Source: Escherichia phage MeretOppenheim_Bas102
Sequence record: PQ850620.1
DNA: 39,651 nt
Reading direction: 5' to 3' (one strand)
The position numbers and the translations under genes were made by a program. This document shows, one piece after another, positions 6,573 to 23,305 of this stretch. The notes under the pieces were generated by a model. The model worked only from the letters and a program-made list of their open reading frames with translations. It did not search any database and was not told the DNA's origin. Every line of letters begins with the position of its first letter. Position 1 is the first letter of the stretch.

Positions 6573-9224
6573 ATGAACACGATTAACATCGCTAAGAACG
6601 ACTTCTCTGACATCGAACTAGCTGCTATTCCGTTCAATACTCTGGCTGACCATTACGGTGAGCGTTTAGCTCGCGAACAGTTGGCCCTTGAGCATGAGTC
6701 TTACGAAATGGGCGAAGCACGCTTCCGCAAGATGTTTGAGCGTCAGCTTAAAGCTGGTGAGGTTGCGGATAACGCTGCCGCCAAGCCTCTCATTACTACC
6801 CTACTCCCTAAAATGATTGCACGCATCAACGATTGGTTTGAGGAAGTGAAAGCTAAGCGCGGCAAACGCCCGACAGCATTCCAGTTCCTGCAAGAAATCA
6901 AGCCGGAAGCTGTAGCTTATATCACCATTAAGACCACTCTGGCTTGCCTCACTAGCGCAGACAATACAACCGTTCAGGCTGTAGCAAGCGCAATCGGTCG
7001 AGCCATTGAGGATGAGGCTCGCTTCGGTCGCATCCGTGACCTTGAGGCTAAGCACTTCAAGAAAAACGTTGAGGAGCAACTCAACAAGCGCGTAGGGCAC
7101 GTCTACAAGAAAGCATTCATGCAGGTTGTCGAAGCTGACATGCTCTCTAAGGGTCTTTTAGGCGGTGAAGCGTGGTCTTCGTGGCACAAGGAAGACTCTA
7201 TTCACGTAGGTGTGCGCTGCATTGAGATGATCATCGAGTCAACCGGAATGGTCAGCTTGAACCGCCAAAACGCTGGCGTAGTAGGGCAAGACTCTGAGAC
7301 TATCGAACTCACACCGGAATACGCTGAAGCTATCGCAACACGTGCGGGTGCACTGGCTGGTATCTCTCCGATGTTCCAACCTTGTGTAGTTCCTCCCAAG
7401 CCTTGGACTGGCATTACCGGTGGTGGCTATTGGGCTAATGGTCGCCGCCCTCTGGCACTGGTACGTACCCACAGCAAGAAAGCACTGATGCGCTACGAAG
7501 ATGTTTACATGCCTGAGGTGTACAAAGCGATTAACATTGCACAAAACACCGCATGGAAAATCAACAAGAAAGTCCTAGCGGTCGCCAACGTAATCACCAA
7601 GTGGAAGCACTGCCCTGTAGAGGACATCCCAGCGATTGAACGCGAAGAACTCCCGATGAAACCGGAAGACATCGACACGAATCCTGAGGCGCTCACCGCT
7701 TGGAAGCGTGATGCTGCCGCTGTGTACCGCAAGGACAAGGCTCGCAAGTCTCGTCGTATCAGCCTTGAGTTCATGCTTGAGCAAGCCAATAAGTTCGCTA
7801 ACCATAAGGCCATCTGGTTCCCTTACAACATGGACTGGCGCGGTCGTGTTTACGCTGTGTCAATGTTCAATCCGCAAGGTAACGACATGACCAAGGGACT
7901 GCTTACGCTGGCGAAAGGTAAACCAATCGGTAAGGAAGGTTATTACTGGCTGAAAATCCACGGCGCAAACTGTGCGGGTGTCGATAAGGTTCCGTTCCCT
8001 GAGCGCATCAAGTTCATTGAGGAAAACCACGAGAACATCATGGCTTGCGCTAAGTCTCCACTGGAGAACACTTGGTGGGCTGAGCAAGATTCTCCGTTCT
8101 GCTTCCTTGCGTTCTGCTTTGAGTACGCTGGGGTACAGCACCACGGCCTGAGTTATAGCTGCTCTCTTCCGCTGGCGTTCGATGGGTCTTGCTCTGGCAT
8201 TCAGCACTTCTCCGCGATGCTCCGTGATGAGGTAGGTGGTCGCGCTGTTAACTTGCTGCCCAGCGAAACCGTTCAGGACATCTACGGGATTGTCGCTAAG
8301 AAAGTCAACGAGATTTTGCAAGCAGACGTAATCAACGGGACCGACAACGAAGTAGTTACCGTTACCGATGAGAACACTGGTGAAATCTCTGAGAAAGTCA
8401 AGCTGGGCACCAAGGCGCTGGCTGGTCAGTGGTTGGCTTACGGTGTTACTCGTAGTGTGACTAAGCGTTCAGTCATGACGCTGGCTTATGGGTCCAAAGA
8501 GTTCGGATTCCGTCAACAAGTGCTGGAAGATACCATTCAGCCAGCCATTGATTCCGGTAAGGGTCTGATGTTCACTCAACCGAATCAGGCTGCTGGATAC
8601 ATGGCGAAACTGATTTGGGAATCTGTGAGCGTGACGGTGGTAGCTGCTGTGGAAGCTATGAACTGGCTTAAGTCTGCTGCTAAACTGCTGGCTGCTGAGG
8701 TCAAAGATAAGAAGACTGGAGAGATTCTTCGCAAGCGTTGCGCTGTACATTGGGTGACTCCTGATGGGTTCCCAGTGTGGCAAGAATACAAGAAGCCTAT
8801 TCAGACTCGCTTGAACCTGATGTTCCTCGGTCAGTTCCGTCTACAGCCGACCATTAACACCAACAAAGATAGCGAGATTGACGCTCACAAGCAGGAGTCT
8901 GGCATCGCTCCTAACTTTGTACACAGCCAAGACGGTAGTCACCTGCGTAAGACTGTAGTGTGGGCACATGAGAAGTATGGAATCGAGTCTTTTGCACTGA
9001 TTCACGACTCCTTCGGGACCATTCCGGCTGACGCTGCTAACCTGTTCAAAGCTGTTCGGGAAACTATGGTTGACACCTATGAGTCTTATGATGTACTGGC
9101 TGACTTCTATGACCAGTTTGCTGACCAGTTGCATGAGTCTCAATTGGACAAAATGCCAACGCTTCCGGCTAAAGGTAACTTGAATCTACGTGACATCTTA
9201 GAGTCAGACTTCGCGTTCGCGTAA
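6573..9224 (+). CDS. 1: single-subunit DNA-directed RNA polymerase (T7 RNAP, gp1)
   Basis: 883-aa ORF MNTINIAKNDFSDIELAAIPFNTLADHYGERLAREQLALEHESYEMGEARFRKMFERQ...; unmistakable T7 RNA polymerase. Confidence 0.98.
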   Translation: MNTINIAKNDFSDIELAAIPFNTLADHYGERLAREQLALEHESYEMGEARFRKMFERQLKAGEVADNAAAKPLITTLLPKMIARINDWFEEVKAKRGKRPTAFQFLQEIKPEAVAYITIKTTLACLTSADNTTVQAVASAIGRAIEDEARFGRIRDLEAKHFKKNVEEQLNKRVGHVYKKAFMQVVEADMLSKGLLGGEAWSSWHKEDSIHVGVRCIEMIIESTGMVSLNRQNAGVVGQDSETIELTPEYAEAIATRAGALAGISPMFQPCVVPPKPWTGITGGGYWANGRRPLALVRTHSKKALMRYEDVYMPEVYKAINIAQNTAWKINKKVLAVANVITKWKHCPVEDIPAIEREELPMKPEDIDTNPEALTAWKRDAAAVYRKDKARKSRRISLEFMLEQANKFANHKAIWFPYNMDWRGRVYAVSMFNPQGNDMTKGLLTLAKGKPIGKEGYYWLKIHGANCAGVDKVPFPERIKFIEENHENIMACAKSPLENTWWAEQDSPFCFLAFCFEYAGVQHHGLSYSCSLPLAFDGSCSGIQHFSAMLRDEVGGRAVNLLPSETVQDIYGIVAKKVNEILQADVINGTDNEVVTVTDENTGEISEKVKLGTKALAGQWLAYGVTRSVTKRSVMTLAYGSKEFGFRQQVLEDTIQPAIDSGKGLMFTQPNQAAGYMAKLIWESVSVTVVAAVEAMNWLKSAAKLLAAEVKDKKTGEILRKRCAVHWVTPDGFPVWQEYKKPIQTRLNLMFLGQFRLQPTINTNKDSEIDAHKQESGIAPNFVHSQDGSHLRKTVVWAHEKYGIESFALIHDSFGTIPADAANLFKAVRETMVDTYESYDVLADFYDQFADQLHESQLDKMPTLPAKGNLNLRDILESDFAFA

Positions 9225-9848: not shown

Positions 9849-9869
9849 AACCAATAGGAGATAAACATT

Positions 9870-10892
9870 ATGATGAACATTAAGACTAGCCCATTTAAAG
9901 CCGTGTCTTTCGTAGAGTCCGCCATTAAGAAGGCTCTGGGTAACGCTGGGTATCTTATCGCTGACATCAAGTACGATGGTGTACGTGGGAACATCTGCGT
10001 AGACAATACCGCTAACAGTTGCTGGCTCTCTCGTGTATCTAAAACGATTCCGGCGCTGGAGCACTTAAACGGGTTTGATGTTCGCTGGAAGCGTCTGCTG
10101 AACGATGACCGTTGCTTCTACAAGGATGGCTTCATGCTCGATGGGGAACTCATGGTCAAAGACGTAGACTTCAACACAGGGTCCGGCCTACTGCGTACCA
10201 AATGGACTGACACTAAGAACCAAGAGTTCCACGAAGAGTTATTCGTTGAACCGGTACGTAAGAAAGATAAAGTTCCCTTTAAGCTGCACGCCGGACACCT
10301 TCACGTCAAACTGTACGCTATCCTCCCGCTGCACATCGTGGAGTCTGGAGAAGATTGCGATGTCATGACGTTACTCATGCAGGAACACGTTAAGAACATG
10401 CTGCCTCTGCTACAGGAATACTTCCCTGAAATCGAATGGCAAGCGGCTGAATCTTACGAGGTCTACGATATGGTGGAACTACAGCAACTGTATGAACAGA
10501 AGCGTGAAGAAGGCCATGAGGGTCTCATCGTGAAAGACCCGATGTGCATCTATAAGCGCGGTAAGAAGTCCGGCTGGTGGAAACTTAAGCCTCTTGAGGA
10601 AGCTGACGGCATCATTCAAGGTGTAAACTGGGGAACCGAAGGGCTTGCTAACGAAGGTAAAGTGATCGGCTTTAGTGTCTTGCTAGAAAGCGGGTGTGTA
10701 GTAGATGCTAATAACATCTCACGGGAACTGATGGATGAATTTACAGCTAACGTTAAAGAACATGGCGAGGACTACTACAATGGGTGGGCTTGTCAAATTG
10801 GATTTATGGAGGTAACACCTAATGGAAACCTTAGACATCCGTCCTTCACCTGCTTCCGAGGAACTGAGGACAATCCGAAAGAGAAAGTATAA
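9870..10892 (+). CDS. 1.3: ATP-dependent DNA ligase (gp1.3)
   Basis: 340-aa ORF MMNIKTSPFKAVSFVESAIKKALGNAGYLIADIKYDGVRGN... with adenylation motif KYDG; C-terminal region shorter than T7 ligase as I recall it. Confidence 0.93.
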   Translation: MMNIKTSPFKAVSFVESAIKKALGNAGYLIADIKYDGVRGNICVDNTANSCWLSRVSKTIPALEHLNGFDVRWKRLLNDDRCFYKDGFMLDGELMVKDVDFNTGSGLLRTKWTDTKNQEFHEELFVEPVRKKDKVPFKLHAGHLHVKLYAILPLHIVESGEDCDVMTLLMQEHVKNMLPLLQEYFPEIEWQAAESYEVYDMVELQQLYEQKREEGHEGLIVKDPMCIYKRGKKSGWWKLKPLEEADGIIQGVNWGTEGLANEGKVIGFSVLLESGCVVDANNISRELMDEFTANVKEHGEDYYNGWACQIGFMEVTPNGNLRHPSFTCFRGTEDNPKEKV

Positions 10893-11292
10893 GTATAACC
10901 CTGCGGCTCCTTCGGGAGTCGTTTCTGCCTCTGGTAAACCAATAGGTTACAAGCGGAAAGATGGGTATTGGCTACTTTCTTATGGAGGAAAGCATGTACT
11001 TGCACACAGGGTGGTCTGGATGCTTAACTTCGGTGTCATACCGGAGGGAATGGTGATAGACCACATTAACAGAAACCCTAGCGATAACCGTATAGAGAAT
11101 CTTCGAATAGTAACTCAATCAGCTAACCTAATGAACGTAGGCGTCCGGTCTCATTGTAGGAGTGGAGAGAAGTTTATCTCCCTTGATGTGAGAACCGGAC
11201 GTTTTTCCGTTCGTATCAGGAGAAAATCCTATGGCACATATGGTACTCTCGAAGAGGCTATAGCTGTGCGCGATGCTAATACGACTCACTAA
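10822..11292 (+). CDS. HNH homing endonuclease with C-terminal AP2-like DNA-binding domain, overlapping ligase 3' end
   Basis: 156-aa ORF with HNH motif IDHINRNPSDNRIENLRIVTQSANLMN and AP2-like tail (GRFSVRIRRKSYGTYGTLEEAIAVRDA); own RBS GGAGG at 10808-10812 inside ligase ORF; occupies the position of T7 gene 1.4; true start uncertain. Confidence 0.75.
   Translation: METLDIRPSPASEELRTIRKRKYKYNPAAPSGVVSASGKPIGYKRKDGYWLLSYGGKHVLAHRVVWMLNFGVIPEGMVIDHINRNPSDNRIENLRIVTQSANLMNVGVRSHCRSGEKFISLDVRTGRFSVRIRRKSYGTYGTLEEAIAVRDANTTH
10902..10930 (+). terminator. TE-like early terminator (for host RNAP)
   Basis: hairpin CGGCTCC-TTCG-GGAGTCG followed by TTTCTGCC immediately after the ligase stop; resembles the T7 TE element (GGCTCACCTTCGGGTGGGCCTTTCTGCG) as I recall it. 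Confidence 0.55.
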
Positions 11293-11299
11293 AGGAGGT
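11277..11299 (+). promoter_or_regulatory. T7 RNAP promoter phi1.5
   Basis: TAATACGACTCACTAAAGGAGGT; contains the stop codon of the upstream HNH ORF. Confidence 0.88.
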
Positions 11300-11306
11300 A
11301 CACATC

Positions 11307-11396
11307 ATGATGTACTTAATGCCATTACTCATTGTCGTCATAGGATGCCTTGCGCTCCACTGTAGCGATGACGATATGCCAGATGGTCACGCTTAA
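11307..11396 (+). CDS. 1.5: gp1.5
   Basis: 29-aa ORF MMYLMPLLIVVIGCLALHCSDDDMPDGHA immediately downstream of phi1.5 with RBS AAAGGAGG. Confidence 0.6.
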   Translation: MMYLMPLLIVVIGCLALHCSDDDMPDGHA

Positions 11397-11416
11397 TACG
11401 ACTCACTAAAGGAGAC
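11394..11416 (+). promoter_or_regulatory. T7 RNAP promoter phi1.6
   Basis: TAATACGACTCACTAAAGGAGAC; first three nt are the TAA stop of gene 1.5. Confidence 0.88.
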
Positions 11417-11421
11417 ACTAT

Positions 11422-11682
11422 ATGTTTCGACTTCATTACAACAAAAGCATTAAGAATTTCACGATTCGCCGTGCTGACCGTTCAATCGTATGTGCGAGCG
11501 AGCTCCGAGCTAAGTTACCTCTTATTGGTGACACAGTTCCTCTGGCACCGAGCGTACACATCATTATTACCCGTGGTGACTTTGAGAAAGCAATAGACAA
11601 GAAACGTCCGGTTCTTAGTGTGGCAGTGACCCGCTTCCCGTTCATCCGTCTGTTACTCAAACGAATCAAGGAGGTGTTCTGA
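11422..11682 (+). CDS. 1.6: gp1.6
   Basis: 86-aa [66 protein letters not shown]... downstream of phi1.6. Confidence 0.85.
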
Positions 11683-11910
11683 TGGGCAAAGACATGGTAA
11701 ACCAACCTGCGCATTATACTTCTGGCGGGATTGAGTGCCTTGACGCTATCAGGGCTTCGATGACAGAGGAGGCATTTAAGGGCTTCCTGAAAGGTAACGT
11801 ACTTAAGTATATGTGGCGCTACGAGAAGAAATTTAATCCAACTGAGGACTTAAAGAAAGCTCAGTGGTATTTGAAGCGTCTGGAGGAAGCAAATGAAAAG
11901 GATAAATCAT

Positions 11911-12257
<347 letters not shown>

Positions 12258-12260
<3 letters not shown>

Positions 12261-12280
12261 TACGACTCACTATTAGGGAG
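12258..12280 (+). promoter_or_regulatory. T7 RNAP promoter phi2.5 (A-initiating)
   Basis: TAATACGACTCACTATTAGGGAG with the extra T characteristic of phi2.5; begins with the gene 2 stop codon. Confidence 0.88.
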
Positions 12281-12330
12281 GGAGGACTCCCTTTAAGAAA
12301 CCAAAATGAAACCTAAAGGAGATTAACATT

Positions 12331-13035
12331 ATGGCTAAGAAGATTTTCACCTCTGCGCTGGGTACTGCTGAACCTTACGCTTACATCGCTAAGCCGGACT
12401 ACGGCAACGAAGAGCGTGGCTTTGGGAACCCTCGCGGTGTCTACAAAGTTGACCTGACTATTCCCAACAAAGACCCGCGCTGCCAGCGTATGGTCGATGA
12501 AATCGTGAAGTGCCACGAAGAGGCTTATGCTGCTGCCGTTGAGGAATACGAAGCGAATCCACCTGCGGTAGCTCGTGGTAAGAAACCATTGGAGCCTTAC
12601 GAGGGAGACATGCCGTTCGTAGATAACGGTGACGGTACGACTACCTTTAAGTTTAAGTCCTACGCATCCTATCAAGATAAGAAGACCAAAGAGACCAAGC
12701 ACATCAATCTGGTTGTTGTGGATTCTAAGGGTAAGAAGATTGAGGACGTGCCTATCATCGGTGGCGGCTCTAAGCTGAAAGTTAAATACTCTCTTGTTCC
12801 CTACAAATGGAATAAAGCAGTCGGTGCAAGCGTTAAGCTACAGTTGGAGTCTGTAATGCTGGTCGAACTGGCTTCCTTTGGTGGTGGCGGTGATGGTGAT
12901 TGGGCTGATGAAGTCGAAGAGAACGGCTATGTTGCCTCTGGTTCTGCCAAAGCGAGCAAACCACGCGACGAAGAAAGCTGGGACGAAGACGACGGAGACT
13001 CTTACGAAGAAGAAGACGAAGACGGAGACTTCTAA
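12331..13035 (+). CDS. 2.5: single-stranded DNA-binding protein (gp2.5)
   Basis: 234-aa ORF MAKKIFTSALGTAEPYAYIAKPDYGNEERGFGNPRGVYKVDLT... with acidic C-terminal tail ending DGDF. Confidence 0.95.
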   Translation: MAKKIFTSALGTAEPYAYIAKPDYGNEERGFGNPRGVYKVDLTIPNKDPRCQRMVDEIVKCHEEAYAAAVEEYEANPPAVARGKKPLEPYEGDMPFVDNGDGTTTFKFKSYASYQDKKTKETKHINLVVVDSKGKKIEDVPIIGGGSKLKVKYSLVPYKWNKAVGASVKLQLESVMLVELASFGGGGDGDWADEVEENGYVASGSAKASKPRDEESWDEDDGDSYEEEDEDGDF

Positions 13036-13491
13036 GTGGCTGGCGCATACGCTGCGCGTGGTATCCGAAAGGTCGGGACATTCCGTTCCGGCCTAGAAGA
13101 TAATGTCTCTAAGCAGCTAGAGGGTAAGGGCATTCAGTTCGACTATGAACTGTGGAAAATCCCTTACGTTGTCCCTGCGAGCAACCATATGTATACTCCA
13201 GACTTCCTGCTGCCTAACGGAATCTTTATTGAAACCAAGGGTTTATGGGAGAGTGACGACCGAAAGAAACACTTACTGATTCGCGAACAGTTTCCTGAAC
13301 TGGACATCCGTCTGGTGTTCTCAAGCTCACGCACCAAGCTGTACAAAGGGTCTCCGACCAGTTACGGTGAATGGTGCGAGAAGCACGGCATTCTGTTTGC
13401 TGACAAATTAATTCCTGTAGAATGGCTCAAAGAACCCAAAAAGGAGGTGCCATTTGACAAGCTGAAACAATCGAAGGGAGGAAAGAAATAA
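13036..13491 (+). CDS. 3: endonuclease I, Holliday-junction resolvase (gp3)
   Basis: 151-aa ORF (M)AGAYAARGIRKVGTFRSGLEDNVSKQLEGKGIQFDYELWKIPYVVPASNHMYTPDFLLPNGIFIETKGLWESDDRKKH...; GTG start directly abutting the gene 2.5 stop codon. Confidence 0.92.
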   Translation: MAGAYAARGIRKVGTFRSGLEDNVSKQLEGKGIQFDYELWKIPYVVPASNHMYTPDFLLPNGIFIETKGLWESDDRKKHLLIREQFPELDIRLVFSSSRTKLYKGSPTSYGEWCEKHGILFADKLIPVEWLKEPKKEVPFDKLKQSKGGKK

Positions 13492-13946
13492 TGGCTCGTG
13501 TACAGTTTAAACAACGTGAATCTACTGACGCAATCTTTGTCCACTGCTCGGCTACCAAGCCAAGTCAGAATGTAGGTGTCCGTGAGATTCGCCAGTGGCA
13601 CAAAGAGCAAGGCTGGCTTGATGTGGGGTATCACTTTATCATCAAGCGTGATGGTACAGTAGAGGAAGGCCGAGATGAGATGGCTGTAGGCTCTCACGTT
13701 AAGGGTCATAACCACAACTCCATTGGTGTCTGCCTTGTAGGTGGTATCGACGATAAAGGTAAGTTCGACGCTAACTTTACGCCAGCCCAAATGCAATCCC
13801 TTCGCTCACTGCTTGTCACACTACTGGCTAAGTATGAAGGCGCTGTGCTTCGCGCGCATCATGATGTGGCACCTAAGGCTTGCCCATCGTTCGACCTTAA
13901 GCGTTGGTGGGAGAAGGACGAACTGGTCACTTCTGACCGTGGATAA
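13491..13946 (+). CDS. 3.5: lysozyme / N-acetylmuramoyl-L-alanine amidase, RNAP inhibitor (gp3.5)
   Basis: 151-aa ORF MARVQFKQRESTDAIFVHCSATKPSQNVGVREIRQWHKEQGWLDVGYHFIIKRDGTVEEGRDEMAVGSH... Confidence 0.95.
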   Translation: MARVQFKQRESTDAIFVHCSATKPSQNVGVREIRQWHKEQGWLDVGYHFIIKRDGTVEEGRDEMAVGSHVKGHNHNSIGVCLVGGIDDKGKFDANFTPAQMQSLRSLLVTLLAKYEGAVLRAHHDVAPKACPSFDLKRWWEKDELVTSDRG

Positions 13947-13947
13947 T

Positions 13948-13970
13948 TAATTGAACTCACTAAAGGGAGA
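13948..13970 (+). promoter_or_regulatory. T7 RNAP promoter phi3.8
   Basis: TAATTGAACTCACTAAAGGGAGA, the divergent phi3.8-type sequence, directly upstream of gene 4 here. Confidence 0.85.
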
Positions 13971-14002
13971 CCACAACGGTTTCCCTTTGTTCGCAATGTT
14001 GA

Positions 14003-15736
<1,734 letters not shown>

Positions 15737-15743
<7 letters not shown>

Positions 15744-15759
15744 ACTCACTAAAGGAGCT
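15737..15759 (+). promoter_or_regulatory. T7 RNAP promoter phi4.3
   Basis: TAATTAGACTCACTAAAGGAGCT; its +2 to +6 GGAG serves as RBS for the inserted HNH gene. Confidence 0.8.
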
Positions 15760-15765
15760 AACCAC

Positions 15766-16191
15766 ATGGACACTAACTTAGCGAGATTTGAAATATTCTT
15801 GAAGATTGATGGTGACTGCTGGTTGTTCACTGGTGGAAGGGCGCACTCCTATGGAGTCTTCTGGATGAACGGTAAGAATCACAAGGCACATAGGGCCGCC
15901 TTCGAACTTTATAACGGGAGGAAACCTAATGGCGTTATACTACATTCTTGTGATAATCCTTTGTGCTGCAATCCCGCTCATCTATCTGAGGGAACTCAGC
16001 TTGATAATATGGTGGACATGGTTAGAAAGGGACGCTCATTGAGAGGTACTAAGAATCCAATGTGCAAGTTTACTGATGCGGATGTTAAGTTCATCCGAGA
16101 GTCTACCATGAAGGTCAAGGATTTAGCTGCTTTATTCGGAGTAACCCGCCAAACAATAACTAAATGGAGGAGGCACCAATGTTCAAACTGA
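15766..16191 (+). CDS. free-standing HNH (His-Me finger) endonuclease inserted between promoter phi4.3 and gene 4.3
   Basis: 142-aa ORF MDTNLARFEIFLKIDGDCWLFTGG... with motif HSCDNPLCCNPAHL and C-terminal HTH-like TRQTITKWRR; paralogous to gp7.7 and to the intron ORF; not present at this locus in T7. Confidence 0.8.
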   Translation: MDTNLARFEIFLKIDGDCWLFTGGRAHSYGVFWMNGKNHKAHRAAFELYNGRKPNGVILHSCDNPLCCNPAHLSEGTQLDNMVDMVRKGRSLRGTKNPMCKFTDADVKFIRESTMKVKDLAALFGVTRQTITKWRRHQCSN

Positions 16192-17179: not shown

Positions 17180-19138
17180 ATGATCGTTTCTGACATCGAA
17201 GCTAACGCCCTCTTAGAGAGCGTCACTAAGTTCCACTGCGGGGTTATCTACGACTACTCCACCGCTGAGTACGTAAGCTACCGTCCGAGTGACTTCGGTG
17301 CGTATCTGGATGCGCTGGAAGCCGAGGTTGCACGAGGCGGTCTTATTGTGTTCCACAACGGTCACAAGTATGACGTTCCCGCATTGACCAAACTGGCAAA
17401 GCTACAATTGAACCGTGAGTTCCACCTTCCCCGTGAGAACTGTATCGACACCCTTGTGCTGTCACGCTTGATTCACTCTAACCTGAAAGACACCGATATG
17501 GGTCTTCTGCGTTCCGGTAAGTTGCCCGGTAAACGATTTGGGTCTCACGCTTTGGAGGCGTGGGGTTATCGCTTAGGCGAAATGAAGGGTGAATACAAAG
17601 ACGACTTTAAGCGTATGCTTGAAGAGCAGGGTGAAGAGTACGTTGACGGAATGGAGTGGTGGAACTTCAACGAAGAGATGATGGACTATAACGTTCAGGA
17701 CGTTGTGGTCACTAAGGCTCTACTTGAGAAGCTACTCTCTGACAAACACTACTTCCCTCCTGAGATTGACTTTACGGACGTAGGTTACACTACGTTCTGG
17801 TCAGAATCCCTTGAGGCCGTTGACGTTGAACATCGCGCTGCGTGGCTACTCGCTAAGCAAGAGCGAAATGGATTCCCGTTTGACACGAAAGCAATCGAAG
17901 AGTTGTACGTAGAGTTAGCTGCTCGCCGCTCTGAGTTGCTCCGTAAATTGACCGAAACGTTCGGCTCATGGTATCAACCTAAGGGTGGCACCGAAATGTT
18001 CTGCCATCCGCGAACAGGCAAGCCACTGCCTAAATACCCTCGCATTAAGACACCTAAAGTTGGTGGTATCTTTAAGAAGCCTAAGAACAAGGCACAGCGA
18101 GAGGGCCGTGAGCCTTGCGAACTTGATACCCGCGAGTACGTTGCTGGCGCTCCGTATACTCCAGTTGAGCACGTAGTGTTTAACCCTTCGTCTCGTGACC
18201 ACATCCAGAAGAAACTCCAAGAGGCTGGATGGGTCCCCACGAAGTACACCGATAAGGGTGCTCCTGTGGTGGACGATGAGGTACTCGAAGGAGTACGTGT
18301 AGATGACCCCGAGAAGCAAGCTGCTATCGACCTCATTAAAGAGTACTTGATGATTCAGAAGCGAATCGGACAGTCTGCTGAGGGAGACAAGGCATGGCTC
18401 CGTTACGTTGCCGAGGACGGTAAGATTCATGGTTCTGTTAACCCTAATGGAGCAGTTACGGGTCGTGCGACCCATGCGTTCCCCAACCTTGCGCAAATTC
18501 CGGGTGTACGTTCTCCTTATGGGGAGCAGTGCCGTGCTGCTTTTGGCGCTGAGCATCATTTGGATGGGCTAACTGGTAAGCCTTGGGTTCAGGCAGGTAT
18601 CGATGCATCCGGTCTGGAGCTACGCTGCTTAGCCCACTTTATGGCTCGCTTTGATAACGGTGAGTACGCCCACGAGATTCTTAACGGTGACATCCACACT
18701 AAGAACCAGATGGCTGCTGAACTGCCTACCCGTGATAACGCCAAGACGTTCATCTACGGGTTCCTGTATGGTGCTGGCGATGAGAAGATTGGGCAGATTG
18801 TTGGTGCTGGTAAAGAGCGCGGCAAGGAACTCAAGAAGAAATTCCTTGAGAACACCCCAGCTATTGCAGCACTACGCGAGTCTATCCAACAGACACTTGT
18901 CGAGTCCTCTCAGTGGGTAGCAGGTGAGCAACAAGTCAAGTGGAAACGCCGCTGGATTAAAGGTCTGGATGGTCGTAAGGTACACGTTCGTAGTCCTCAC
19001 GCTGCCTTGAATACCCTGCTCCAATCCGCTGGTGCTCTCATCTGCAAACTGTGGATTATCAAGACCGAAGAGATGCTCGTAGAGAAAGGCTTGAAGCACG
19101 GCTGGGATGGGGACTTTGCGTACATGGCATGGGTGCAT
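17180..19138 (+). CDS. 5: DNA polymerase (gp5), exon 1 encoding residues 1-653
   Basis: Family A polymerase with 3'-5' exonuclease domain ([26 protein letters not shown]...); reading frame ends ...[11 protein letters not shown] then runs into 7 aberrant codons and a stop at 19160-19162 unless spliced. Confidence 0.9.
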
Positions 19139-19739
19139 AAACTATTTCATTGTGCACATTAAATCTGGTGAACTCGGTGAAACCCTAATGGGGCAATACC
19201 GAGCCAAGCCATAGGGAGGATATATGAGAGGCAAGAAGTTAATTCTTGAGGCCACTGAGACTGGCTGTATCATCCCTACGTCACACAAACTTAATGCTGA
19301 TGGTTATTTCAGAAAGAAAACCAATGGCGTCTTGGAGATGTATCACAGAACGGTGTGGAAGGAGCATAATGGAGAAATACCTGAAGGCTCCGAGATAGAC
19401 CATAAGTGTCGCAATAGGGCTTGCTGTAACATAGAGCATTTACAGATGCTTGAAGGTACAGCCCACACTGTTAAGACCAATCGTGAACGCTACGCAGACA
19501 GAAAGGAAACAGCTAGAGAATACTGGCTGGAGACTGGATGTACAGGCCTAGCACTCGGTGAGAAGTTTGGTGTGTCGTTCTCTTCCGCTTGTAAGTGGAT
19601 TAGAGAATGGAAGGCGTAGAGACTATCCGAAAGGAGTAGGGCCGAGGGTGAGACTCCCTCGTAACCCGAAGCGCCAGACAGTCAACTCAAAGACTGATGA
19701 TATAGTCCGACACTCCTAGTAATAGGAGAATACAGAAAG
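19139..19739 (+). mobile_element. group I self-splicing intron (inferred) interrupting gene 5 at motif C
   Basis: 601-nt insertion starting after exon U19138 and ending with G19739; GTGCAC (19152-19157) pairs with exon end GTGCAT (19133-19138) giving P1 with U-G wobble at the splice site; TTTCAT (19146-19151) complements exon 2 start ATGAAA (19741-19746) = P10; GACTAT (19621-19626)/ATAGTC (19702-19707) candidate P7; exon frame restored exactly. Confidence 0.8.
19224..19619 (+). CDS. intron-encoded HNH (His-Me finger) homing endonuclease
   Basis: 131-aa ORF MRGKKLILEATETGCIIPTSHKLNADGYFRKK... with motif EIDHKCRNRACCNIEHL, own RBS GGGAGGA 4 nt upstream; lies wholly inside the inferred intron. 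Confidence 0.8.
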   Translation: MRGKKLILEATETGCIIPTSHKLNADGYFRKKTNGVLEMYHRTVWKEHNGEIPEGSEIDHKCRNRACCNIEHLQMLEGTAHTVKTNRERYADRKETAREYWLETGCTGLALGEKFGVSFSSACKWIREWKA

Positions 19740-22898: not shown

Positions 22899-22912
22899 TC
22901 TTGGAGGTTGTC

Positions 22913-23305
22913 ATGGAGAATTGTATTGAGTGGACTAAAGGTACTAATCAGAAAGGTTATGGACGTAAGTGGGTGAACGGTAAACTGGTGTCTGCACATC
23001 GTCACGCTTACGAAGAAGTTCATGGTCCAATCCCACATGGTCTTGTTGTAATGCACCTCTGTGACAATCCTCGATGTTATAATGTGGAGCACTTGACTCT
23101 TGGGACACATGCGGACAATTCAGATGATAAAGTTCGGAAAGGTAGACAAGCCAGAGGAGAAACTCTCAGCAAGAAGCTAACAGCGAGCGACGTTTTGGAA
23201 ATCCGTAGCTTGACACTACCACACACCGAGATAGCCAAGATGTACGGTGTAAGTCAATCAACTATAACTCGCATAATTAGACGAGATACATGGAGGCATA
23301 TCTAA
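22913..23305 (+). CDS. 7.7: gp7.7 HNH (His-Me finger) homing-endonuclease-like protein
   Basis: 130-aa ORF MENCIEWTKGTNQKGYGRKWVNGKLVSAHRHAYEEVHGPIPHGLVVMHLCDNPRCYNVEHL...; canonical T7 position between 7.3 and portal gene. Confidence 0.85.
   Translation: MENCIEWTKGTNQKGYGRKWVNGKLVSAHRHAYEEVHGPIPHGLVVMHLCDNPRCYNVEHLTLGTHADNSDDKVRKGRQARGETLSKKLTASDVLEIRSLTLPHTEIAKMYGVSQSTITRIIRRDTWRHI

Follow-up and report, generated by a model that had tools for sequence, protein, structure and literature searches.

An uninterrupted gene 2.5-gene 3 junction in a T7-like Escherichia phage, with endonuclease I plausibly coupled in translation to the single-stranded DNA-binding protein

We analyzed a stretch of 39,651 nucleotides (hereafter, the window) from Escherichia phage MeretOppenheim_Bas102 (PQ850620.1), a T7-like phage genome of the genus Teseptimavirus whose closest database genomes, such as that of Escherichia phage JeanTinguely, are ~92% identical to it over the first 25 kb. 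At the locus considered here, the gene for the single-stranded DNA-binding protein (SSB), gene 2.5, is followed by gene 3, encoding endonuclease I, and then by gene 3.5 (Table 1). The GTG that opens gene 3 abuts the TAA of gene 2.5 with 0 nt between them, at exactly the positions reported in an initial annotation of this DNA, and the two genes share a reading frame. That annotation was also right that the only Shine-Dalgarno-like element available to gene 3 is a GGAG inside the last codons of gene 2.5. It is encoded by the Gly-Asp codons of the C-terminal DGDF of gp2.5, whose acidic tail reads ...EDEDGDF, and is separated from the GTG by a spacer of 8 nt, its last G lying 9 positions before the start codon. 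At the other end of gene 3, the stop codon shares one base with the start of gene 3.5, which has a strong GGGAGGA upstream.

Table 1. Features of the gene 2.5-gene 3 locus, in window coordinates.
Feature	Position	Strand	Evidence
T7-type promoter phi2.5, TAATACGACTCACTATTAGGGAG	12258-12280	+	sequence; core match 12259-12273; phi2.5 annotated in 13a and T7
Gene 2.5, single-stranded DNA-binding protein, 234 aa	12331-13035	+	Pfam PF21265 SBB_T7, 296 bits
Shine-Dalgarno-like GGAG, weak	13024-13027	+	sequence; anti-Shine-Dalgarno duplex -6.6 kcal/mol
TAA, gene 2.5 stop codon	13033-13035	+	sequence, ORF list
GTG, gene 3 start codon	13036-13038	+	sequence, ORFs, survey; same start annotated in 13a
Gene 3, endonuclease I (Holliday-junction resolvase), 151 aa	13036-13491	+	Pfam PF05367; PDB 2PFJ, 1M0D, 1FZR
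TAATG, gene 3 stop (13489-13491)/gene 3.5 start (13491-13493), one base in common	13489-13493	+	sequence, ORFs
Gene 3.5, amidase/lysozyme	13491-13946	+	Pfam Amidase_2

The promoter phi2.5 overlaps the stop codon of gene 2 and drives genes 2.5, 3, and 3.5. Searches for T7 promoters found none between 12280 and ~13944, and the next promoter-like site is a phi3.8-like sequence at ~13944-13970. Scans of 12200-14100 for sigma-70 promoters and terminators returned nothing above chance expectation, the sole terminator-like match falling within it, and an Rfam scan of 11000-15000 at E <= 1 gave no match. With no T7 promoter, convincing terminator, or Rfam element between them, genes 2.5, 3, and 3.5 are thus placed on one transcript. 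Two antisense ORFs, at 12833-13081 and 13032-13133, were dismissed because the annotated coding sequences of the T7, T3, and 13a records are all on the + strand. Further upstream, between the gene 1.x region and gene 2, the window has an 87-aa DUF3310 ORF (11682-11945); a DUF3310 protein is found in the corresponding region of T3, and none is present there in the T7 gene list.

The gene 3 product matched the Pfam family Phage_endo_I (PF05367) with 271.2 bits, against a cut-off of 29.1, its residues 1-149 covering model positions 1-148/149. With phmmer, residues 4-151 aligned to residues 3-149 of T7 endonuclease I (PDB 2PFJ; E 1e-85), bearing out the earlier claim that the GTG opens a homolog of this enzyme. 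In the alignment to 2PFJ, a structure in which Ala replaces the catalytic Lys, window residues E21, D56, E66, and K68 line up with E20, D55, E65, and K67 (T7 numbering), which we take to be the catalytic residues of T7 endonuclease I. The gene also has the expected neighbors, the SSB gene 2.5 on one side and the amidase gene 3.5 on the other. By these alignments, gene 3 of the window is a full-length ortholog of T7 endonuclease I.

We found no in-frame ATG, GTG, or TTG in gene 3 after GTG 13036 and before codon 52, and a start at codon 52 would cost the protein its catalytic Glu (E21 in the window, E20 in T7). Because the codon preceding the GTG is a stop and the next in-frame start lies past this Glu, GTG 13036 is, on the reading frame itself, the only credible start of gene 3. 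The record of phage 13a is annotated in the same way, with gene 2.5 ending at 8441 and gene 3 starting at 8442. At the position homologous to the window GTG, 16 genomes have GTG and the other surveyed genomes have ATG, and this codon always abuts or overlaps the gene 2.5 stop. The GTG is thus no product of chance. For annotation, gene 3 should be called from the GTG abutting the gene 2.5 stop. Some public records leave gene 3 unannotated, label it 'hypothetical protein', or misname it (for example NC_048164 (HZP2), MW074885 (JB01), and MZ220766 (PVN09)); one possible cause is that gene callers miss a GTG with a zero spacer.

The arrangement of the junction was then compared across relatives. 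We took 76 IMG/VR loci encoding relatives of gp3, located the gene 2.5 stop and the gene 3 start in each, and treated 36 of them as close relatives; because some of these loci duplicate GenBank isolates, the counts given below do not represent independent lineages. Spacing was 0 or -1 nt in 33 of the 36 close loci, which span several genera and use three spellings of the junction: TAA-GTG, in the window and 15 other loci, including 13a and phiA1122; TAA-ATG, in 1 locus; and the one-base overlap TAATG, in ~15 loci. The RefSeq record of T3 has the TAATG overlap and lacks gene 2.8. Among the close loci, only T7, fPS-59, and KP32_195 carry an insert between genes 2.5 and 3, and one further locus (L033) has a 45-nt spacer there. 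The insert-free layout is the majority state in every genus sampled, and in more distant, marine relatives the two genes mostly overlap by 8-14 nt or lie a few nucleotides apart. Abutment or overlap of stop and start is, across these sequences, the usual layout in the T7 group, and the window junction is an ordinary one.

Scanning IMG/VR with a 14-base junction motif (TTCTAAGTGGCTGG) gave mostly chance matches in unrelated contigs and was useless as a census. The protein-anchored survey was used in its place, together with blastn of 80 bases taken from both sides of the junction. In the latter search, at least 66 phage records spanned the junction at >=80% of the query, and 72 records covered an 801-base query at >=80%.

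T7 is one of the exceptions. As the initial annotation stated, its record has a 139-codon gene 2.8 (9857-10276) between the SSB gene and gene 3. The annotation was likewise correct that this gene is absent from the window: alignment with T7 shows nothing at the 2.5/3 junction, and tblastn with the three HNH proteins known from this site found no HNH ORF there, only paralogs elsewhere in the window. A three-way alignment of the window, 13a, and T7 places the difference precisely. T7 shares the stretch ...GACGGAGACTTCTAAGTGG with the other two, and the GTG in it is the annotated start of gene 2.8. After the retained TAAGTGG, T7 carries ~400 nt of extra sequence, and its gene 3 begins at an ATG that sits inside the 3' end of gene 2.8 and is preceded by AAGGGAGG. 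In the 80-base blastn, the matches of all T7-type records to the window broke off after base 13039, where TAAGTGG ends; those of phiA1122, YpsP-G, several phages of the BASEL collection, and others continued straight across.

Inserts of the gene 2.8 type occur sporadically, at exactly the site of the window's junction, in three genera: in T7, in Yersinia phage fPS-59 (Helsettvirus), and in Klebsiella phage KP32_195 (KP32 group). All three encode HNH_3 proteins, and T7 gp2.8 shares 74% identity with the one from fPS-59 and 38% with that of KP32_195. The distribution is patchy even among close kin. T7 carries the insert and 13a and phiA1122 do not; fPS-59 carries it and its siblings fPS-53, fPS-85, fPS-89, and fPS-54-ocr do not; and the KP32_195 insert is covered by 17 of 564 matching records, mostly from Klebsiella phages. 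Among the matches listed, 112 records have a gp2.8 at least 95% identical to that of T7, nearly all of them T7 itself or its laboratory derivatives. In a recent preprint, T7 genes 2.8, 3.8, and 7.7 count as homing endonucleases, and a T7 constructed without gene 2.8 is viable (bioRxiv 10.1101/2025.09.07.674715).

The inserts also meet their neighbors in a consistent way. In T7 and fPS-59, the inserted gene begins at the very codon from which insert-free genomes start gene 3, the fPS-59 HNH gene taking the ATG of TAATG; for the KP32_195 insert, the start appears to be a TTG overlapping the stop of gene 2.5. Each of the three inserts also provides, in its 3' end, a new ATG for gene 3 and a stronger ribosome-binding site to go with it. 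In all three genomes the HNH reading frame ends within codons 7-10 of gene 3, and all three have a shorter gene 3 N-terminus, MAGYGAKG in place of MAGAYAARG. MAGYGAKG also occurs in one insert-free locus (L025), so the link between this allele type and the insert is not strict.

Related genes are found at other places in the window, where HNH_3 endonuclease ORFs lie at 10822-11292, 15727-16191, 19224-19619, and 22901-23305. The second, which follows gene 4, and the last, at the position of gene 7.7, encode proteins 42-44% identical to T7 gp2.8. The third is contained in a group I intron (19129-19729) that interrupts the DNA polymerase gene 5; its match to Rfam RF00028, at 45 bits (E 7e-10), falls just short of the gathering score (50), and in 13a, which is 94% identical over this region, gene 5 is annotated as a two-piece join. 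Gene 3.8, an HNH gene in T7, is absent from the window as well; the interval 13944-14020 there holds the phi3.8-like promoter TAATTGAACTCACTAAAGGGAGA, followed directly by the gene 4A start at 14018.

Sequence identity changes sharply at the insertion site. Between the window and T7, the DNA of gene 3 is 67-77% identical along its whole length, whereas the flanking genes are mostly 85-100% identical (gene 2.5 ~90%, gene 3.5 88-100%). Between the window and 13a, gene 3 DNA is 95-100% identical. Codons 2-7 of gene 3 in the window (GCTGGCGCATACGCTGC) equal those of T3 base for base and differ from those of T7. The pair fPS-59 and fPS-53, with and without the insert, shows the same pattern: identity is 99.5% across gene 2.5 to the end of TAATG, falls to 53-82% in gene 3, and recovers in gene 3.5. 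Arrival of the HNH gene together with a diverged gene 3 allele explains the identity patterns of both T7 and fPS-59. Free-standing homing endonucleases usually have a co-converted or cleavage-resistant flank, and by analogy the diverged gene 3 allele beside the insert could be such a flank.

Shine-Dalgarno sites of gene 3 were scored as the pairing of the 20 nt before the start codon with the 3' end of 16S rRNA, using simple duplex energy estimates. The window site, at -6.6 kcal/mol, is weak but present, and in 13a the gene 3 site is among the ten weakest of 55 annotated starts and its start codon is one of five that are GTG. Across 13 distinct abutting or overlapping junctions, energies ranged from -1.0 to -8.5 kcal/mol (mean -5.0), and two of these junctions, at -1.0 and -1.9 kcal/mol, have essentially no Shine-Dalgarno site. 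The separated junctions (n=4) ranged from -9.6 to -11.3 kcal/mol. The two sets differ (Mann-Whitney p = 0.002), in a comparison that is uncorrected for phylogeny, contains few events, and includes two separated junctions with related inserts. Local RNA folding near the gene 3 start gave only weak, non-conserved hairpins. Across relatives, then, the juxtaposition of the two genes is conserved and the Shine-Dalgarno site is not, and a strong site is present wherever the juxtaposition is broken. This is the pattern expected if gene 3 depends on ribosomes terminating at the gene 2.5 stop.

The absence of gene 2.8 from the window could in principle reflect loss. The initial annotation took it for a clean deletion, by which a T7-like ancestor with gene 2.8 lost that gene and had its gene 2.5 stop fused to gene 3. 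T7 and the window do share an identical TAAGTGG and the last codons of gene 2.5, and with GTGG and ATGG flanking the T7 insert, a microhomology-mediated deletion is conceivable. However, a deletion would have kept the T7 gene 3, and deletion from a T7-like sequence cannot yield a gene 3 only 67-77% identical to that of T7 between flanks mostly at 85-100%; the window gene is 95-100% identical to that of 13a, with first codons that are T3's. The predominance of the insert-free layout in every genus sampled, and the membership of gene 2.8 in a mobile HNH family with a patchy distribution, also speak against it. We consider a clean deletion very unlikely and reject it. Aligning the window with T7, as had been proposed for finding the deletion end points, did yield a breakpoint, at 13039, but one that marks an insertion in T7, with TAAGTG kept and a different allele of gene 3 beyond. 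Alternatively, the window lineage may once have had the homing-endonuclease gene and lost it by homologous recombination with an insert-free phage, replacing an allele that spans gene 3. Mosaicism of the kind this calls for is visible, gene 2.5 of the window being ~90% identical to both T7 and 13a and its gene 3 being 13a-like, and T7 itself represents a TAAGTG-type junction invaded at least once. No observation requires such a history, though, and the window junction holds no HNH remnant; we judge it improbable, if less so than a deletion. A site that had lost its insert and one never invaded would look alike.

A second set of alternatives concerns how gene 3 is started. Independent initiation, directed to GTG 13036 by the Shine-Dalgarno site, would make the zero spacing mere genome compaction. 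The GGAG, with its 8-nt spacer and -6.6 kcal/mol, is a usable though weak site, and tight packing is common among genes of the T7 group. Against this, relatives with sites of -1.0 and -1.9 kcal/mol still keep the overlap, and a strong site is present in all genomes where genes 2.5 and 3 are not contiguous. We regard independent initiation as unlikely, while granting it appreciable weight. Far more remote is the idea that endonuclease I is made from a downstream codon, or as a fusion to SSB, with ribosomes reading through the in-frame TAA. A fusion is suggested by the shared frame of genes 2.5 and 3, with the TAA as sole separator. However, the T3-like TAATG puts the two genes in different frames, leaving no conserved fusion, and the Rfam scan of 11000-15000 did not find a readthrough signal. 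The first downstream in-frame start, codon 52, lies past the catalytic Glu21, and N-terminal residues 2-16 are conserved in the protein across clades. Neither a codon 52 start nor a programmed readthrough fusion was retained.

From what is shown above of the junction's anatomy, the orthology of gene 3, the spread of the layout among relatives, the breakpoints of the inserts, and the divergence of the alleles, we conclude that the window very probably carries the uninterrupted, ancestral-type 2.5/3 junction of a 13a/phiA1122-type Teseptimavirus, with gene 3 likely coupled to gene 2.5, and is not a deletion derivative of T7. Termination-reinitiation, in line with the translational coupling suggested by the initial annotation, is a plausible mechanism for starting gene 3 and the most reasonable one. 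Genes 2.5, 3, and 3.5 would be co-transcribed from phi2.5, and ribosomes finishing the heavily translated gene 2.5 at UAA 13033-13035 would most likely reinitiate on the adjoining GUG 13036, aided only by the weak GGAG, itself fixed by the C-terminal Asp-Gly-Asp-Phe codons of gp2.5. Endonuclease I would then be made as a modest, fixed fraction of SSB. A low output of gene 3, which that annotation also raised, would fit the combination of GTG and a weak Shine-Dalgarno site and is possible; T3-like relatives have ATG in the same position. We found no paper on the 2.5/3 junction, or on coupling of gene 3, in this phage or its close relatives.

On this reading, T7 differs in that the free-standing HNH homing-endonuclease gene 2.8, sitting exactly at the 2.5/3 junction, has taken over the GTG, presumably along with its coupling to gene 2.5, and T7 gene 3 then initiates from the new ATG, with the strong Shine-Dalgarno site, in the 3' end of the inserted gene. 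More generally, and with less than even confidence, we tentatively propose that TAA-GTG could be the unoccupied homing site of the gene 2.8 HNH family, whose inserts would capture the gene 3 start and its coupling to SSB, compensate by giving gene 3 another ATG with a stronger ribosome-binding site, and bring along a cleavage-resistant, diverged gene 3. If so, T7 would be expected, in a mixed infection, to exclude this region of the window phage or to convert it, and insertion would alter the dosage of endonuclease I. The locus offers a tidy example of a homing-endonuclease gene seizing a host gene's translation start, and could be used for work on homing and marker exclusion between T7 and its relatives. 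Because three of its genes (2.8, 3.8, and 7.7) are mobile HNH genes, T7 serves poorly as the standard of 'normal' gene content.

The arrangement is already known, in that it is annotated in the public records of 13a, phiA1122, and T3, and so is the nature of gene 2.8 as a dispensable HNH homing-endonuclease gene. That the insert takes the start codon of gene 3 in T7 and fPS-59 and supplies a new ATG is a modest point that may be worth a note. The nearest counterparts of the window are 13a (NC_011045) and phiA1122, which have the same TAA-GTG and the same GGAG and likewise lack gene 2.8; they show only point differences from it, for instance in the acidic tail of gp2.5. T3 (NC_003298) also has gene 3 immediately after gene 2.5, but with TAATG, an ATG start, and the two genes in different frames; relative to T3, the window has one extra G, giving TAA-GTG and a single frame. 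T7 (NC_001604) shares the end of gene 2.5, the TAAGTG, and the operon phi2.5-2.5-3-3.5, and its endonuclease I is ~85% identical in amino-acid sequence. Unlike the window, however, it has HNH gene 2.8 running from that GTG, and the ATG of its gene 3 lies 400 nt further on, behind a strong site of -11.3 kcal/mol. As for the HNH genes themselves, T7 2.8, 3.8, and 7.7, fPS-59 g012, and the HNH gene of KP32_195 have paralogous HNH_3 counterparts at four other sites in the window and none at the junction. Finally, bacteria and phages have translationally coupled stop-start pairs, such as the UGAUG of E. coli trpB-trpA. The 2.5/3 junction of the window, a candidate for such coupling, resembles pairs of this kind in its adjacent stop and start, its weak Shine-Dalgarno site inside the upstream gene, and its single transcript; it differs from trpB-trpA in starting with GTG and not AUG.
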